Positions 1,237-54,375 of a DNA stretch of 64,000 nucleotides are shown here, piece after piece. The notes under the pieces were generated by a model, which searched no databases, had not been told where the DNA came from, and saw nothing but the letters and a program-made list of their open reading frames with translations. The stretch is from an uncultured Candidatus Saccharibacteria bacterium (GTDB taxonomy: Bacteria; Patescibacteriota; UBA1384; CAILIB01; JAUSJZ01): assembly GCA_964421635.1 (NCBI GenBank), contig CAYQWZ010000004.1, positions 15,652-79,651 on the forward strand, in the 5' to 3' direction. Positions within the stretch are counted from its first letter, which is position 1; each line of letters begins with the position of its first letter. A program made the position numbers and the translations under genes.

Positions 1237-1583
1237 GCCTAGCATGCTAATTGATAAGCCGAGTTCTGTTTATGATGCCATCTATCTAGGCGTCAGGATC
1301 CAGCTAAACCGAAAGTCACCGTTATTTAGCCGTCCCAACCTGACTTGCTTCGCGTTAGGTTTACCACTTTTGTACGTCACCGTACAGAAGGATTTGTTTT
1401 TACCAAATCTTTTCACCCTTACCTTGGAGATCATTGCAGCCTCTCGGCTGTTTTGAACATAAGGCGGTTTATTTTCTGCGGCACTTGCTCGCACCTTGCG
1501 ATGGGTTGCATTTCGCAACAACGCTGACTTGGAAGCTCGGACTTTCCTCTGCAAAATAAATAAGCAGTAGCATCTTCAATTAG
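1237..1583 (-). ncRNA. rnpB: RNase P RNA (bacterial type A-like)
   Basis: The minus-strand sense carries the universally conserved P4-region motif AGGAAAGTCCGAGCTTCC (consensus AGGAAAGUCCGGGCUCC), GGTAAGGGTGAAA (P10-12 region), and the 3' motif ACAGAACTCGGCTTAT (consensus ACAGAACCCGGCUUA). The terminal P1 helix is CCTAGCAGGCTAATTGA...TCAATTAGCATGCTAGG. The overlapping 60-90 aa ORF-track calls here are spurious. Confidence 0.85.
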
Positions 1584-1644
1584 CCTGCTAGGCTGTGCTG
1601 AATATACCCTATTTTAGGGGTTTTGTCAACCAAAAAGTGCAACT

Positions 1645-11590: not shown

Positions 11591-12100
11591 GTGTTAAAAA
11601 TAATCACCGAACCCAATAAAGTTTTGCACCAAAAATGTGAGCCTATCACTGAGTTTTCTGATGACCTAAAAAAGTTAGCCTCAGATATGCGCGCTACTAT
11701 GCACAGTAACAAGGGTATGGGTTTGGCCGCACCACAAATAAATAAATCTATTAGATTAACTGTTATTGAATATCTACCCAAAGATAAAGACGGCAATTTA
11801 ATCAAAAGTGAGGTTATTCCCTTTATAGCGCTTGTTAATCCTGAAATTACTTGGACTAGTTCAAAAACAGTACAAATAGCAGAAGGATGTCTCTCTATTC
11901 CCGGATTTGAAGGAGAGGTAATTCGGCCAAAAAGGGTCAAAGTTAAAGCTCAAAATTTAAATGGAGAAAAAATTGTACTTAAGGCTTCGGGTCTTTTGGC
12001 TCGCATCGTTCAACACGAAATAGATCACTTAAACGGCATTTTGTACTCTGAGAAATTAGCGCCAAACAGCTCTTTGCAACCTGTAAAACCAGCTATCTAA
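11591..12100 (+). CDS. def: peptide deformylase
   Basis: Carries all three PDF motifs: GLAAPQI, EGCLSIPG and QHEIDHLNG. Confidence 0.92.
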   Translation: MLKIITEPNKVLHQKCEPITEFSDDLKKLASDMRATMHSNKGMGLAAPQINKSIRLTVIEYLPKDKDGNLIKSEVIPFIALVNPEITWTSSKTVQIAEGCLSIPGFEGEVIRPKRVKVKAQNLNGEKIVLKASGLLARIVQHEIDHLNGILYSEKLAPNSSLQPVKPAI

Positions 12101-12130
12101 ATTATGCGCATAAATATTTGGCTTTTGCAC

Positions 12131-12159
12131 TTGACAAATGGTCTTTTTTTTGATAATGT
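12131..12159 (+). promoter_or_regulatory. near-consensus sigma70 promoter (TTGACA-17 nt-TAATGT) driving the GC-rich unit
   Basis: TTGACA at 12131-12136 and TAATGT at 12154-12159 with an exact 17-nt spacer. The predicted start site is near 12166. Confidence 0.6.
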
Positions 12160-12165
12160 ATTTGC

Positions 12166-13112
12166 ACGCTCGCATGTAGGGCCGCCCCATGATGGGCAGG
12201 CCAACACCCGAGCGCATTAACAACACGGTCCTGACATGTCACCTTGTAGCTCATCTTGGGCTACGGTGGGTGAATGCCCGGATCTCTCAGCTACGAGGGA
12301 ACTCGTAGACGCTACCCTAGATTGGAGTACCGTGTGACGAAGCCCGCGTGCTTCGTAGCGAGGAGCCACACCGTGCGGGACGGTGGTTAGGCTTTCCGGC
12401 ACCAAGCGTTGGTGACCAGGGCTCACAGGGTGGGTGCACTTGCCAGAGAGAGCCAGACAGGACTCTAAGAAGTTAGTCCCTGGCTTAACTTGGTAGGGCG
12501 TCCGCCTTGGCACAAGTACATCGACAGCGCAGTCGGGCTCGGGTGGGTGGCTCGAACGCCACTTCCCTGAGCCCGCCATCATCACTCTGAACCGCTCCGC
12601 TACAAAAGCGGCGGCGACCCATCGCGAAGAAGACGAAGGAGAGACAGATCATGATGCTCCGCGGACCGACGATGGCGCTGCACCGCAGCGACCATAAGAC
12701 CACCTGATCGACGCGCGCCACGGCCGCCTACTCGGCCGGCCGGCAGTAGGCTCTAACGCCTCTAGCCGGCCGGCCCCACCAACACCCTAGTACAAGAAAG
12801 GGTATAGTCGTGAATCAGCTGAACATCTAGGGGGTGTCTGCAACGCCTCCCTAAGACCACCTAAATTCCCAGAGAGAGACTGAATTCACTACCAGTCACC
12901 TCTCAGGTCAAGCTCGAGAGAGTATGCAGCCGGCAGCCGGATAGCTGACAGTCTCGCAAAGCCTGCGAGCCGAGTGAACAAGGCAAAACAAAAGAAAGGA
13001 GTACCGCATGCAGCGGTACCCGACCGGATTTCGTTAACTCGTGGGCTTCGGCCCACGGACAACCAAAGACCCGCGCCATGATCCCTTCGGGGTGAGCGCG
13101 GGTCTTCGCTTT
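12166..13112 (+). ncRNA. candidate large (~950 nt) GC-rich structured ncRNA of unknown class between def and fmt
   Basis: This ~1 kb block is far GC-richer (roughly 60% by eye) than the flanking low-GC DNA. It has no sense-strand ORF of 60 aa or more. Strand-specific UUCG tetraloop hairpins are present (GTGGGCTTCGGCCCAC and CCCTTCGGGG), along with long perfect stems such as GGCCGGCCGGC...GCCGGCCGGCC. It runs from a consensus promoter to an intrinsic terminator. Confidence 0.5.
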
Positions 13113-13116
13113 GTCT
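13067..13116 (+). terminator. intrinsic terminator ending the GC-rich unit
   Basis: 10-bp GC stem AGACCCGCGC...GCGCGGGTCT around a CCCTTCGGGG hairpin, followed by the T-rich tract TCGCTTTGTCT. Confidence 0.55.
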
Positions 13117-13141
13117 AAAAATTTAAATCCTGCTACCCTTA

Positions 13142-14020
13142 ATGGCAATGAAACAAAAAATAATCTTTTTCGGCACTCCGGTAATAGCCGCCCACACCCT
13201 ACAAAAATTGAACTCTAAATTTGATATTGTTTTAATAATTACGGAACCCGACAAACCTTCAGGTCGTGGCTTAAAAACAGAACCTACACCTGTAAAAAAG
13301 CTCGCCAAAAAACTGAACCTGAAAATTGCTCAACCCAAAAATAAGCAAGAAATTACCAACATTTTAAAGAAGAAAAATGCAAACTTGGGAGTTATCATCG
13401 CTTACGGTCAAATATTGCCTCAAGAAGCCATTAAAAGCGTTTCTGGGGGCATTTTGAACATTCATGGCTCAATATTGCCTAAGTACAGAGGTTCGTCACC
13501 TATTCAGCAGGCAATTTTAAACGGAGATAAAACCACTGGCGTTACTATAATGAAAATTAATGAAGGAGTAGACACAGGCGATATTTTAGCTACTAAAAAG
13601 GTCAAAATTGCATTTAACGACACTACTGCCACACTGGCTCAAAAACTAGTTGAGGTCGGCACAAAACTACTAATAGAAGTAATTCCAAAATATCTCGACG
13701 GCCAAATAAAGCTTAAAGCTCAACCAAAAAAAGGCAGTTTGGCGCCAAAAATTACGAAAGATATGGGTCAAATCAATTGGTCAGATTCAGCCGAAAAAAT
13801 TGACAGACAGATTCGAGCCTTTCAGCCTTGGCCAAAATCCTTTACTACATACAATAATAAAAGATTAATCATTCACCAAGCAAAAATTGTAAATAAACAG
13901 TTAATTCCGCAAATTGTGCAAATTGCCAACAAAAAAAGTACCAGCTGGCAAGATTTTCTGAATGGTCAGCACCTAACGCAAGATCAAGCCTTGAGCGAAA
14001 TATTGCGCCAAAACACTTGA
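13142..14020 (+). CDS. fmt: methionyl-tRNA formyltransferase
   Basis: IIFFGTP N-terminus and the formyltransferase core (HGSILPKYRGSSPIQQAILNGD). It is the canonical partner of def. Confidence 0.9.
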   Translation: MAMKQKIIFFGTPVIAAHTLQKLNSKFDIVLIITEPDKPSGRGLKTEPTPVKKLAKKLNLKIAQPKNKQEITNILKKKNANLGVIIAYGQILPQEAIKSVSGGILNIHGSILPKYRGSSPIQQAILNGDKTTGVTIMKINEGVDTGDILATKKVKIAFNDTTATLAQKLVEVGTKLLIEVIPKYLDGQIKLKAQPKKGSLAPKITKDMGQINWSDSAEKIDRQIRAFQPWPKSFTTYNNKRLIIHQAKIVNKQLIPQIVQIANKKSTSWQDFLNGQHLTQDQALSEILRQNT

Positions 14021-14068: not shown

Positions 14069-14452
14069 ATGGTAATTATAAGATTGCGTCGGGGCGGAAG
14101 ACGTCACGAACCACATTACAGAATTGTAGCTCAAGAGAAGCGTTCAAAATTGAACGGTGCTTTTATTGAGAGTATCGGTCATTATCATCCGGCTACAAAA
14201 GATAAGGAGCTGGTGATAGACGCTGACCGAGCTAAATATTGGCTTGCACAAGGTGCACAGCTTTCTGTAACCGTAAATAATCTTTTTGTAAAAGAAGAAA
14301 TATTACCTAAAAAAAATAAGATTAGCCGAGTGTATAATAAGAAAAAGAAGAAAGATGAAGAAGGTGAAGAAAAGAAGGAAGAGGTCAAAACAGAAGAGAA
14401 AGCAGAAGTGAAAGAAGAGAAAGAGAAGGAAGAGAAAACAGAAACCAAATAA
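14069..14452 (+). CDS. rpsP: 30S ribosomal protein S16 with KE-rich C-terminal extension
   Basis: MVIIRLRRGGRRHEPHYRIVAQEKRSKLNG...GHYHP is canonical S16. The C-terminal ~45 aa are a lysine/glutamate-rich low-complexity tail. Confidence 0.9.
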   Translation: MVIIRLRRGGRRHEPHYRIVAQEKRSKLNGAFIESIGHYHPATKDKELVIDADRAKYWLAQGAQLSVTVNNLFVKEEILPKKNKISRVYNKKKKKDEEGEEKKEEVKTEEKAEVKEEKEKEEKTETK

Positions 14453-18147: not shown

Positions 18148-18379
18148 CAAATAGCTAAAAATGTTTAGAATAACTAGTGTCCTATGAATGAACAAGACAA
18201 CGAAATTCATCACATTCAATTTTTCGATAGCAATGGTGATTTGCCTACCAGCATAACTATATTGGTACGAAGAAAAAAAGGACGCGAGAAGAAAAATCGA
18301 AATCCTATCAGCTCAGATAATTTACTCGAAATTCACCAAGAGCTAAAAACAAAAAAATCAATTAAGCAAATATTAAGCC

Positions 18380-19135
18380 ATGGTAAGCCAAGCAAGCGAA
18401 AAGGTTGAGCTGCAAGCAGTCAGCCGAGATGACAAGAAAGCCAAGCATATTAGAAAAGAAGGATTCGTTCCGGCAGTTTTGTATGGCAAGAAAACAGACA
18501 ACAGAAATATTCAAATAAATACTTTAAAGTTGGCTGCCCTATTGCGAGAGCACGGCACCACCTCTTTGATTGATTTAAAGATAGATAAAGAGAAAGAGAT
18601 AAAAGTGCTAATTCGCGAGCCTCAATTTAATCCGGTGACTTATGATCTTGTACATACAGATTTTTATAAAGTAGATCTTACCCAAAAAATTACTTCTGCT
18701 ATTCCGGTAGTATTTAAAGGCCATAGCCCTGCGGTTGAAGATTTGGGTGGTTCATTAATTGAAACCAAATCAGAAGTTGAAGTTGAGTGTTTGCCACAAG
18801 ACTTGCCATCTGAGCTTGTGGTTAAAATTAGTGCTTTGAAAACTTTTGAAGATGTTATGCATGTTAGCGACATTGAAGTGCCAGCTGGCGTTGAAATTTT
18901 AGATGAACCAAATGAAGTACTAGCATCTGTCGCTGAGCCTCGCTCAGAAGAAGAATTGGCTGCCCTAGACGAAGATATTGAAGAGAATGTTGAAGATGTT
19001 GAAGTTGAAGGTGCCGAAGAAGGTGAAGAAGGCGCCGAGGAAGAAGGTGAGGGTGCAGAAGGTGATGTTGATTCTGAAGACAGCGAAAAACCAGCTGAAG
19101 ATAAATCCAATAGTGGTGAAGCCAAAGAGGCTTAA
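18380..19135 (+). CDS. rplY: 50S ribosomal protein L25/general stress protein Ctc with acidic tail
   Basis: VSRDDKKAKHIRKEGFVPAVLYGK...VHTDFYKVD matches the L25/Ctc N- and beta-barrel domains. The last ~60 aa are strongly acidic (EEGEEGAEEEGEGAEGD). Confidence 0.85.
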   Translation: MVSQASEKVELQAVSRDDKKAKHIRKEGFVPAVLYGKKTDNRNIQINTLKLAALLREHGTTSLIDLKIDKEKEIKVLIREPQFNPVTYDLVHTDFYKVDLTQKITSAIPVVFKGHSPAVEDLGGSLIETKSEVEVECLPQDLPSELVVKISALKTFEDVMHVSDIEVPAGVEILDEPNEVLASVAEPRSEEELAALDEDIEENVEDVEVEGAEEGEEGAEEEGEGAEGDVDSEDSEKPAEDKSNSGEAKEA

Positions 19136-38710: not shown

Positions 38711-38739
38711 TTGACTAATTCTTAATCATTATGTAATGT
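38711..38739 (+). promoter_or_regulatory. near-consensus sigma70 promoter (TTGACT-17 nt-TAATGT) driving the second GC-rich unit
   Basis: TTGACT at 38711-38716 and TAATGT at 38734-38739 with an exact 17-nt spacer. This is the same -10 hexamer and spacing as the promoter at 12131. Confidence 0.55.
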
Positions 38740-38745
38740 AATCGT

Positions 38746-39200
38746 ATAGACGCGCTTACCCTCAAGGCCTTACTAGGTCGAGATACCACTCTGCTAACCT
38801 GTCCACAGGCTTGCAAAGCTCTCTGGACAACCAATCATCGGCACGATGAAACAAAAGCAAGAGACCGTCTCCAACCAGTAATCGTCGAGAGGCAACTAAC
38901 CAGCTGCGTGAGGAATCACAGATCATGAGGAGCCTCCTTCAGCTCGGCCATCCGATGGGCTTGTAGCCACTACATGTGCCCTATGCCAAAAGTGCATCTG
39001 AGGTGGTAACAAGGCCGTTTCGCCAGTCCAAAGGCGCAATTCTGTTTGATCGACTCCGGTCGACAACAGGGAAGTTCGCTCGCAAGAGTATGCCACCCGC
39101 GCTGCGGGTCTGGACACGCGATTCCGCCGCACCATCAAAGGTGTAGGCTACAACTAGCGACAACTTGTTGGCCCCGCCGTCAGGCGGGGTCTTTTCTTTT
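38746..39200 (+). ncRNA. candidate ~455-nt GC-rich structured ncRNA of unknown class
   Basis: GC-rich relative to the flanks with no sense ORF of 60 aa or more. It contains a palindromic hairpin (GTCGACTCCGGTCGAC). It runs from a consensus promoter to the terminator CCCCGCC-GTCA-GGCGGGG-TCTTTTCTTTT at 39172-39200. Confidence 0.45.
39172..39200 (+). terminator. intrinsic terminator ending the second GC-rich unit
   Basis: 7-bp GC stem CCCCGCC/GGCGGGG with loop GTCA, followed by TCTTTTCTTTT. Confidence 0.6.
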
Positions 39201-46965: not shown

Positions 46966-47042
46966 CGGGGAATGGCGCAGTTGGCTAGCGCGCCTGCTTT
47001 GGGAGCAGGAGGCCCCGGGTTCGAGTCCCGGTTCCCCGACCA
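46966..47042 (+). tRNA. tRNA-Pro (anticodon TGG)
   Basis: Acceptor CGGGGAA/TTCCCCG, anticodon stem CCTGC/GCAGG with loop TTTGGGA, T-arm CCGGGTTCGAGTCCCGG, and CCA encoded. Confidence 0.85.
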
Positions 47043-53643: not shown

Positions 53644-54375
53644 ATGGATAAAGGAGGAGATCTACCAAATAAGCAGGATTTTAATTTTGCCCACGATACT
53701 AACTGGCGGATTTTTCGTATTATGGCAGAATTCGTTGACGGATTTACTTTTCTTTCTCAATACAAACGCACAGTAACAGTTTTCGGTTCATCTCGCTTTG
53801 ATGAAAATAATAATTACTACCAAAAAGCAACAACTCTATCAAATATGTTAGCCAAAGATGGTTACACTATTGTTACAGGTGGTGGGCCAGGAATTATGGA
53901 AGCAGCCAATAAAGGTGCCAAGGAAGGCAAAGGCCAGTCAGTAGGATTGAACATTCAATTACCTAATGAGCAAAGGACTAATGCCTATGTTACAAATTCA
54001 GAAGCTTTTAATTATTTTTACACCAGAAAGGTAATGCTCTCTTTTGCTGCCGAAGCTTATATATATTTTCCAGGAGGCTTCGGCACCTTAGACGAACTTT
54101 TTGAAATCCTTAATTTAGAGGCAACTGGAAAAATTGAGCAGCATATTCCTATTATTTTATTTGGCAAAGATTTTTGGCATCCATTAGTAGAATGGATAAA
54201 AAGATCTTTAGTTGAGCAACACGAAACAGTCAGTCAGAAAGATTTCGAAGCCATGCAAATTGTTGACACAATTGAAGACGCTTACCATATTATTAAAACC
54301 TGCAAACCTCGCAACATTCATCCGGCTGAGAGTGAATATAAATCATTAGACGAAAAAACTGGCGGAGAACAGTAA
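53644..54375 (+). CDS. LOG-family protein (TIGR00730 Rossmann-fold nucleotide-binding/phosphoribohydrolase)
   Basis: Motifs VFGSSRF, TGGGPGIMEAANKGA and PGGFGTLDELFE. Confidence 0.85.
   Translation: MDKGGDLPNKQDFNFAHDTNWRIFRIMAEFVDGFTFLSQYKRTVTVFGSSRFDENNNYYQKATTLSNMLAKDGYTIVTGGGPGIMEAANKGAKEGKGQSVGLNIQLPNEQRTNAYVTNSEAFNYFYTRKVMLSFAAEAYIYFPGGFGTLDELFEILNLEATGKIEQHIPIILFGKDFWHPLVEWIKRSLVEQHETVSQKDFEAMQIVDTIEDAYHIIKTCKPRNIHPAESEYKSLDEKTGGEQ

Follow-up and report, generated by a model that had tools for sequence, protein, structure and literature searches.

The window analyzed here, a stretch of 64,000 nucleotides (nt) from contig CAYQWZ010000004.1 of an uncultured Candidatus Saccharibacteria bacterium, carries a GC-rich block of about 1 kb between def and fmt, the genes for peptide deformylase and methionyl-tRNA formyltransferase. 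This block, hereafter called the element, is the subject of this study, and we propose that it represents a gene for a structured non-coding RNA. In terms of encoded products, the gene order is Lgt, signal peptidase, Der, PriA, Def, the element, Fmt, S16, a KhpA-like KH protein, and TrmD, the genes downstream of fmt thus being rpsP, that for the KH protein, and trmD. Homologues of Fmt and Def support the placement of the window in the Patescibacteria, whose genomes of about 1 Mb hold very little non-coding DNA. The GC content is 59.8% in positions 12165 to 13115 versus 39.2% in the remainder of the window, in good agreement with the radically different composition (about 60% GC) pointed out in an earlier interpretation made from the letters of this DNA, hereafter the sequence-only reading. 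The same reading described def and fmt as split by a block of about 1 kb. Indeed, in relatives devoid of the element, the two genes are separated by 89 nt (L010) or 17 nt (L166), follow each other without a gap (L162 and L164), or are fused (L014 and L015). The latter fusion, of 457 amino acids (aa), is syntenic with the window (L014, 3001 to 4374; L015, 2797 to 4170). Several Patescibacteria encode one fused Def-Fmt protein, of 441 to 457 aa (Pfam Pep_deformylase plus Formyl_trans_N/C).

The junctions of the element with def and fmt recur with 99.99 to 100% identity in assemblies of this organism made independently from other samples, and the element is therefore not an assembly chimera. Three short contigs of the same strain (L004, L006, and L007) stop within the GC-rich block or at its border, at window positions 12111, 12235, and 12258. 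Strain variation or a repeat was rejected as the cause of these breaks, since the contigs are 100% identical to the window; a drop in coverage over the GC island appears to account for them.

Gene callers left the element empty in every assembly. The longest plus-strand open reading frame (ORF) with a start codon encodes 42 aa, and the earlier statement that the sense strand has no ORF of at least 60 aa was thus correct; it was silent on a 122-aa ORF on the minus strand (12217 to 12585), which lies inside the lineage-specific domain described below. Seven ORFs of both strands had no match in Pfam, and the 122-aa ORF, searched exhaustively with phmmer against 1.84 billion representative proteins, had no genuine homologue. 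The two matches obtained were eukaryotic tandem-repeat proteins, whose E-values are inflated because a single weak similarity of 44 residues (33 bits) enters them several times. A protein-coding homologue, which the sequence-only reading had named as the kind of finding that would count against it, was thus looked for, and none that is genuine emerged.

The closest relatives by Fmt (62 to 63% identical), L008 and L009, both have, at the same site, an element that is rich in GC and free of genes. Alignment of the three copies revealed a conserved promoter, a conserved 3' core of about 300 to 380 nt, and a conserved terminator. The 5' ~570 nt of the window copy had no similarity to any sequence searched and, judging from this alignment, is lineage specific, only the 3' core being conserved. 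The possibility that the 5' domain is a diverged duplicate of the core was rejected (local score of 23, versus 19.9 ± 2.3 for shuffles). In L163 (Def 56% identical), we found a version of about 170 nt with AAAGGAG, a start-codon hairpin, AAAAACCA, and a long terminator hairpin, fmt starting about 45 nt past the terminator. In L165 (Def 60% identical), the promoter is followed by AAGGAGG and a hairpin and then by the end of the contig, leaving a 5' fragment. Alignment z-scores computed from sequence only were marginal for these two loci (1.3 to 3.9). A covariance model of the 3' module recovered only its training set with default filters, and with filters off, L163 scored 8.8 bits exactly at the expected position. 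L163 and L165 are therefore probable family members by position, promoter, and collinear motif order, with weak statistical support. Element length falls from about 0.95 kb in the window to about 500 nt in L009, 400 nt in L008, and 170 nt in L163.

Other searches added little to this set. A DNA-pattern scan of metagenomes gave 24 matches, one of which was real (L145, identical to L009), while scans of viral collections gave chance matches in AT-rich phage genes only, and a genome-collection scan with Fmt returned only distant Firmicutes. No second copy of the element was found within the window or among the 166 loci compared. By these comparisons, the family is real, narrow, and patchy, comprising three to five species of one Patescibacteria clade. 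Of the large structured RNA of about 950 nt originally envisaged, the structured, non-coding promoter-to-terminator unit stands, but the length of 950 nt applies to this copy only, the core being the 3' ~300 to 380 nt.

The whole element folds far better than dinucleotide shuffles, with minimum free energy z-scores of -8.8 on the plus strand and -9.1 on the minus strand, as anticipated for a highly structured unit. The 5' domain is the most strongly structured part (z = -8.67 for 12166 to 12825, compared to -4.2 for the core). All helices quoted in the sequence-only reading are present, namely, GGCCGGCCGGC/GCCGGCCGGCC (12734 to 12744/12765 to 12775) and GTACCGC/GCGGTAC (13001 to 13007/13013 to 13019), as are its two UUCG hairpins, GTGGGC-TTCG-GCCCAC (13041 to 13056) and CCC-TTCG-GGG (13083 to 13092). 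The three large copies share one architecture (Table 1), which starts with hairpin H1, an A-rich linker with a six-codon frame, H2, and a branched region with H3 and continues with P4, GACAGUCU, H5, GAGUGAA, an A-rich linker, AAAGGAG/GGAGG, H6 with an AUG at its loop, a short frame, H7, ACAACCA, and a nested terminator. The spacing of GACAGUCU, H5, and GAGUGAA is identical in the three copies, and the region at the position of H1 has weak sequence similarity to the 5' part of L009 (z = 3.4).

We then examined whether these helices are maintained by compensatory changes. Explicit location of the arms gave 134 Watson-Crick, 10 G-U, 2 A-C, and 2 other cells, with changes on both sides at 9 of the 41 alignable pair positions. 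Since MAFFT misregisters several helices, the formal pair count was made on a hand-registered, N-padded alignment. In this count of 37 pairs, 96.4% of the cells were paired and 7 pairs were compensatory, a number reached by 3 of 500 shuffles, while slid-partner controls gave 0 to 1 such pairs and 39 to 48% pairing. The alignment and covariation analysis on related genomes that had been suggested at the outset thus did reveal compensatory changes, which we consider supportive, not conclusive, given three sequences and a fitted alignment. RNAalifold prefers a pairing of UUCACU with AGUGAA, that is, of the H3 loop with the segment 12972 to 12978, which makes it a pseudoknot candidate; as UUCAC and GUGAA are both invariant, covariation cannot test this pairing. 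The 11-nt tetraloop receptor (CCUAAG) was not conserved. Mimicry of tRNA-fMet by H7 and ACAACCA was considered and rejected: the resemblance, by eye, is seen in the window copy only, and the 5' end forms no acceptor pairing.

Because the z-scores are similar on both strands, folding energy alone carries no strand information. Wobble asymmetry (G-U over A-C, 10:2), the excess of A over T (222:160), and the conserved plus-strand promoters and terminator T-runs point to the plus strand. A promoter-like site (13148 to 13120) and a terminator-like site (13021 to 12999) reported by scanners on the minus strand of the window would together delimit an antisense transcript of about 110 nt over H6, H7, and the terminator. 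These sites are not conserved in L009 and L008, which is a fourth argument for the plus strand, and are therefore probably by-products of the plus-strand hairpins and the A-rich linker.

The predicted transcription start of the RNA lies near 12166, about 65 nt 3' of def. Its promoter had been called a textbook sigma70 promoter. The motif TTGACA-17-TAATGT is present, but the term is an overstatement, as the -10 hexamer agrees with TATAAT at only 3 of 6 positions and a generic consensus promoter scanner made no call at 12131 to 12159. The agreeing positions include the key T1, A2, and T6, and an extended -10 TG precedes the hexamer. The homologous promoters are TTGACA-17-TATATT in L009 and TTGACA-17-TATAGT in L163 (both 11/12, with TG) and TTGACA-17-TATTAT in L165; the L008 contig begins inside its promoter. 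A promoter of its own, of the form TTGACA-17-TAnnnT with an extended -10 TG, is hence found at the orthologous loci of the window, L009, L163, and L165. Strong promoters of the perfect -35 class match 11 times in the window, both strands together, and three of these matches precede the RNase P RNA gene, the element, and a second GC-rich, RNA-like unit (see below). The RNase P RNA gene (class A, 179.7 bits; 1239 to 1587, minus strand) has TTGACA-17-TATATT at 1629 to 1601, which is of the same class as the promoter of the element. An ORF-poor stretch behind another strong promoter (18148 to 18977) was discarded as ordinary coding sequence.

At the other end, the terminator hairpin forms with a pair probability of 0.994 in the window and of 0.89 to 0.998 across four species, and these values were unchanged when the segment from the Shine-Dalgarno (SD) motif through 10 nt past the stop codon was forced to be unpaired. 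No conserved antiterminator was found in the four species: the best duplexes competing with the terminator arms are weaker than its stem, and their positions are not conserved. The strong intrinsic terminator initially proposed was thus right as to the hairpin (0.99), but the U-tract of the window copy is interrupted (CGCTTTGTCT), while L009 and L008 have runs of 7 to 8 T. The RNA is predicted to end about 35 nt 5' of fmt.

From the sequence in this interval, fmt appears to have its own promoter and a leaderless mRNA, with an implied start near 13146 to 13148. The motif TGCTAnnnT is common to all four copies, 6 to 9 nt 5' of the fmt start codon, its counterparts in L009, L008, and L163 being TGCTACCTT, TGCTACCGT, and TGCTAATAT. 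A TAnnnT box ending 6 to 9 nt before the start codon was found in 18 of 56 crude gene calls in the window, with a peak at 7 nt (for example, at 53644, 41264 on the minus strand, 60807, 7547 on the minus strand, 10130, and 11591), and even a 4-mer SD core lies upstream of only about 6 of 53 window genes. The available portions of two papers describe such a box shortly before start codons as a signature of leaderless transcription (PMC3160421, PMC6028130). This genome looks rich in leaderless mRNAs. The promoter candidate TTGAAT-17-TAATAT, which ends 6 nt 5' of the GTG start of def, is probably def's own. Further downstream, S16 (14069 to 14452, plus strand) has a long Lys/Glu-rich C-terminal extension (KKKKKDEEGEEKKEEVKTEEKAEVKEEKEKEEKTETK).

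The element contains two tiny reading frames at conserved positions. The first lies at the foot of H2 and consists of six codons and a stop in all three large copies; its peptide is not conserved. The second starts at H6 and encodes MQRYPTGFR (9 codons) in the window, MRYPSGFGRK in L009, and MRFPTGFD in L008. L163 keeps the SD motif, the hairpin, and the start codon but not the peptide, and the frames of L163 and L165 are unrelated. A further SD motif with an ORF in the 5' domain (AAGGAG at 12636; ATG at 12651 to TGA at 12707) is not conserved. On the alignments at hand, what is conserved across all copies is the SD-like motif with a hairpin presenting the start codon, not the peptide, and this combination hints at ribosome engagement.

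Table 1. Features of the def-fmt interval (positions in the window)
Feature	Position	Strand	Description
def (peptide deformylase)	11591-12100	+	Upstream neighbour; translation and precomputed Pfam Pep_deformylase
Predicted RNA promoter	12131-12159	+	-35 TTGACA 12131-12136, 17-nt spacer, extended -10 TG 12151-12152, -10 TAATGT 12154-12159
Lineage-specific 5' domain	12166-12733	+	Long GC-rich helices; absent from all relatives
Long hairpin	12734-12775	+	GGCCGGCCGGCAGTAGGC/GCCTCTAGCCGGCCGGCC; position matches H1 (GGGGCGGG.../...CCCGCCCC) of L009 and L008
First short reading frame	12810-12830	+	AAAGGG-7 nt-GTG AAT CAG CTG AAC ATC TAG
H2 hairpin	12829-12851	+	AGGGGGTG/CGCCTCCC; 1 compensatory and 1 wobble-mediated change; G-U kept in all three copies
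H3 hairpin	12878-12897	+	Invariant loop UUCAC (12885-12889); 2 compensatory stem pairs
P4 mini-hairpin	12930-12940	+	CCGG-CAG-CCGG; relatives CTCG-CGG-CGAG/TGAG; 2 compensatory positions
Invariant GACAGUCU, H5, and invariant GAGUGAA	12947-12978	+	H5 12953-12958/12964-12969; GAGUGAA 12972-12978; 2 compensatory pairs
SD-like motif, H6, and mini-frame	12995-13037	+	AAAGGAG 12995-13001; H6 13002-13007/13013-13018; AUG 13008-13010 in loop; TAA 13035-13037
H7 hairpin	13040-13057	+	CGUGGGC-UUCG-GCCCACG; hairpin kept at same position with wholly different sequence in L009 and L008
Invariant single-stranded ACAACCA	13059-13065	+	AAAACCA in L163
Intrinsic terminator	13066-13116	+	Outer stem AAGACCCGCGC/GCGCGGGTCTT (13066-13076/13096-13106), nested hairpin 13082-13092, interrupted U-tract 13107-13116
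Putative extended -10 promoter of fmt	13131-13139	+	TGCTACCCT = TGnTAnnnT, 8 nt before second ATG (13148)
fmt (methionyl-tRNA formyltransferase)	13142-14020	+	Translation and precomputed Pfam Formyl_trans_N/C

With respect to known RNAs, a cmscan of the whole window with Rfam 15 at gathering thresholds found only RNase P, tmRNA, and tRNAs, and at an E-value of up to 10, the element, L009, and L008 gave only scattered sub-threshold matches to differing, unrelated families. OLE, GOLLD, ROOL, raiA, HEARO, and every other Rfam 15 family were rejected, as no covariance model matched any copy at its gathering score. This is in agreement with the sequence-only reading, in which the element did not look like rRNA, RNase P, tmRNA, signal recognition particle RNA, or a group I/II intron, and extends to OLE, GOLLD, ROOL, and raiA as far as they are represented in Rfam 15. 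A T-box or riboswitch leader was rejected because no model was consistent even at an E-value of up to 10; SAM_alpha in L008 (11.4 bits, E = 7.5) is noise. 6S RNA was rejected as well, since there was no 6S match and the copies fold into successive local hairpins and a terminator set apart from them, not into a long closing helix with a central bubble. The same applies to a remnant of a miniature inverted-repeat transposable element or an insertion sequence, as terminal inverted repeats and target duplications are lacking and the element is single copy in the window and the compared loci. The element had no blastn match among phages and plasmids. Our literature search found nothing on an RNA at def-fmt, and the papers found on large non-coding RNAs do not, in their available portions, mention Patescibacteria.

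We conclude that the element is genuine and previously undescribed, apparently a gene for a bacterial structured non-coding RNA, but more modest than the one first proposed, with a conserved unit of about 170 to 380 nt in a handful of species. From its sequence features, it is probably, though by a judgment that we hold with limited confidence, a free-standing gene whose non-coding, highly structured RNA belongs to an undescribed family confined to one Patescibacteria lineage. An insertion between def and fmt in the ancestor of a small clade would have split an otherwise adjacent or fused pair. A strong sigma-70-type promoter (perfect -35, 17-nt spacer, extended -10) would start the RNA, and a stable nested hairpin and U-tract would end it. 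Termination would be constitutive, and fmt would be transcribed separately from the conserved extended -10 box as a leaderless mRNA, so that the RNA would act as a discrete, probably abundant and stable molecule and not as an obligatory fmt leader. The SD-like AAAGGAG/GGAGG of the linker, the start-codon hairpin, and the tiny frame look like a translation-initiation region and, since most genes here lack an SD, we propose that the RNA engages the 30S subunit, the ribosome, or an RNA-binding protein. Whether it would do so as a decoy, as a scaffold, or as a dual-function RNA with a translated frame of 8 to 10 codons is a guess, and the variable GC-rich 5' helices could be lineage-specific stabilizing or scaffold expansions. 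That genomes this compact devote 0.2 to 1 kb to a structured RNA implies that it has a real function.

Several points weigh against a free-standing RNA gene. The existence of the transcript is a prediction, as are its ends and its abundance, and the engagement of the ribosome or of an RNA-binding protein is a guess. Full homologues number only three, with few covariation events in an alignment that was hand-registered to the structure, and the consensus folding energy hardly differs between the two strands (-69.3 versus -70.3 kcal/mol). Conservation of the mini-frame peptide does not extend beyond the three closest species. The hexamer proposed as the -10 of fmt (TACCCT) is poor, and motifs of the form TGnTAnnnT are not rare; the weak U-tract of the window copy makes read-through into fmt possible. 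Finally, an SD motif, a tiny ORF, and a terminator directly 5' of a gene are also the classic layout of a cis-acting attenuator.

Such an attenuator, or 5' leader, of fmt-rpsP-khpA-trmD is the leading alternative. The strong promoter would drive the operon, the tiny SD-led ORF and the terminator would form a switch, and the GC-rich body would serve as a sensor or stabilizer; read-through could be set by the translation of CGG, CCG, and CUG codons, dependent on m1G37 modification by TrmD, or by the supply of formyl-Met-tRNA. In Escherichia coli and Salmonella, TrmD-mediated m1G37 modification is needed for CGG, CCN, and CUN codons. Each of the three large copies has both CGG and CCG in its mini-ORF, L163 and L165 have CUG, CGG makes up 7.5% of Arg codons, being joint-rarest with AGG, and trmD belongs to the downstream operon. 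Moreover, the order of promoter, SD, ORF of 4 to 10 codons, hairpins, and terminator, followed by fmt within about 35 to 45 nt, is kept in four species, and the interrupted U-tract makes some read-through in the window plausible. However, a sequence of 60% GC is expected to contain codons starting with C by chance, outside the three closest species the peptide is unconserved, the leader would vary 5-fold in length, and its 570-nt 5' domain is not conserved. The terminator forms at 0.89 to 0.998 whether or not the ORF region is unpaired, and there is no conserved antiterminator or competing duplex; classical attenuation was rejected because of this lack of a competing structure. The extended -10 box conserved 6 to 9 nt 5' of the fmt start, as at many leaderless-looking genes here, and the rarity of perfect -35 promoters in the window (11, with 3 in front of RNA or RNA-like units) also argue against a leader, which we consider unlikely.

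The unit could instead be a small-protein mRNA for one or more very short peptides, namely, MQRYPTGFR with its equivalents in the relatives and perhaps the product of the six-codon frame before H2; its structure would then only stabilize the message. Every copy has an SD motif 6 to 9 nt from a start codon, R-[YF]-P-[TS]-G-F is kept in three species, third positions account for three of the four substitutions in codons 4 to 6, and the one indel, of 3 nt, keeps the frame. Nevertheless, a third-position bias derived from four substitutions has a chance probability of about 0.1, and the frames of L163 and L165 are unrelated to the others. The frame includes the 3' arm of H6, and a compensating change in the non-coding 5' arm accompanies the Tyr/Phe change, which points to constraint at the RNA level; a structured RNA of 170 to 950 nt also far exceeds the need of a message of 8 to 10 codons, and we regard this explanation as improbable. 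Still less credible is the idea that foreign high-GC DNA or a selfish element was caught between def and fmt and persists as a non-functional remnant. The GC content 20 points above that of the genome, the patchy presence among relatives, and the 570 nt unique to one lineage would fit such an origin. Against it, the promoter, core, and terminator are conserved where Fmt is only 62 to 63% identical, the hairpins are maintained by compensatory changes, and no terminal inverted repeats, target duplications, phage or plasmid match, protein homologue, or second copy was found; in addition, genomes as compact as those of Patescibacteria rarely keep 1 kb of junk.

A more far-reaching version of the proposed RNA gene can be formulated, in which the RNA would be a translation-linked regulator of this lineage of the candidate phyla radiation (CPR). 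In an organism that initiates mostly on leaderless mRNAs devoid of an SD, the canonical SD and AUG module of an abundant structured RNA would capture 30S subunits, or its rare CGG/CCG mini-frame would be translated, thereby tuning initiation modes or reporting formylation or m1G37 status to fmt-rpsP-khpA-trmD. We put this forward as speculation with a small chance of being right; if true, the position between def and fmt would be functional, not accidental. Engagement of ribosomes by the module, if true, would bear on how initiation is organized in an organism rich in leaderless mRNAs. The free-standing RNA gene that we favor would illustrate that an RNA gene can split the conserved def-fmt pair and then grow 5-fold through added GC-rich helices. 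Its narrow distribution (three to five species) limits its present significance.

Just 3' of the tmRNA gene, a second GC-rich (52 to 57%), ORF-poor promoter-to-terminator unit is located at 38711 to 39200 on the plus strand. It consists of a promoter (TTGACT-17-TAATGT, 38711 to 38739), a body of about 450 nt, and a terminator (GGCCCCGCC-GTCA-GGCGGGGTC, then TTTTCTTTT), and its folding z-score is -3.98 on the plus strand versus -1.93 on the minus strand. It has no match to an Rfam family, has only a chance-level 10-mer (GGACAACCAA) in common with the def-fmt element, and is a candidate for a novel RNA gene. On the minus strand, a strong promoter-like TTGACT-16-TATTCT (47249 to 47222) reads into GC-rich GTGAGGGAAGCCCTCGG... 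towards the plus-strand tRNA-Pro gene (46966 to 47042) and could give rise to an antisense or small RNA. The element and the second unit suggest that a simple scan of CPR genomes for GC islands would reveal more lineage-specific RNAs.

Among described systems, the orphan large RNAs OLE, GOLLD, ROOL, and raiA, recognized as GC-rich islands between genes (for the approach, PMC8632094; for cryo-electron microscopy structures, PMC12286853), resemble the element in being GC-rich, ORF-less, strongly folding blocks in an AT-rich genome, hundreds of nucleotides long and conserved with covariation. The element differs from them in its core of about 300 to 380 nt, built of simple hairpins and A-rich linkers with one pseudoknot candidate and no intricate multi-domain fold, in its restriction to three to five species of one Patescibacteria clade, and in having neither an associated protein gene nor a phage context. 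The large, ornate architecture of these classes, to which the element had been tentatively compared, was therefore not recovered, the conserved part being a simple string of hairpins. Leader-peptide attenuators (trp, his, pheST, mgtL, erm, and ABC-F leaders) have the same succession of promoter, SD, very short ORF, hairpins, and terminator just 5' of a gene. Unlike these, the element has no mutually exclusive antiterminator and no regulatory codon run, fmt seemingly has its own promoter, and the 170 to 950 nt include large non-conserved domains.

Two looser analogies can be drawn. With dual-function RNAs such as RNAIII/hld, SgrS/SgrT, and SR1/SR1P, the element may share a transcript of its own, a terminator at its end, a structured body, and a short SD-led frame. 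Its frames, however, have only 4 to 10 codons, the peptide is kept in the closest relatives only, and no target-pairing region was identified. In contrast to the CsrB/RsmZ sponges, the element has no Rfam match, and its GGA motifs lie mostly in linkers, not in hairpin loops. It would nonetheless be loosely similar to these sponges in its GC-rich hairpins, its A-rich linkers with GGA or AGGA (by eye), its variable length, its strong promoter, and its terminator.

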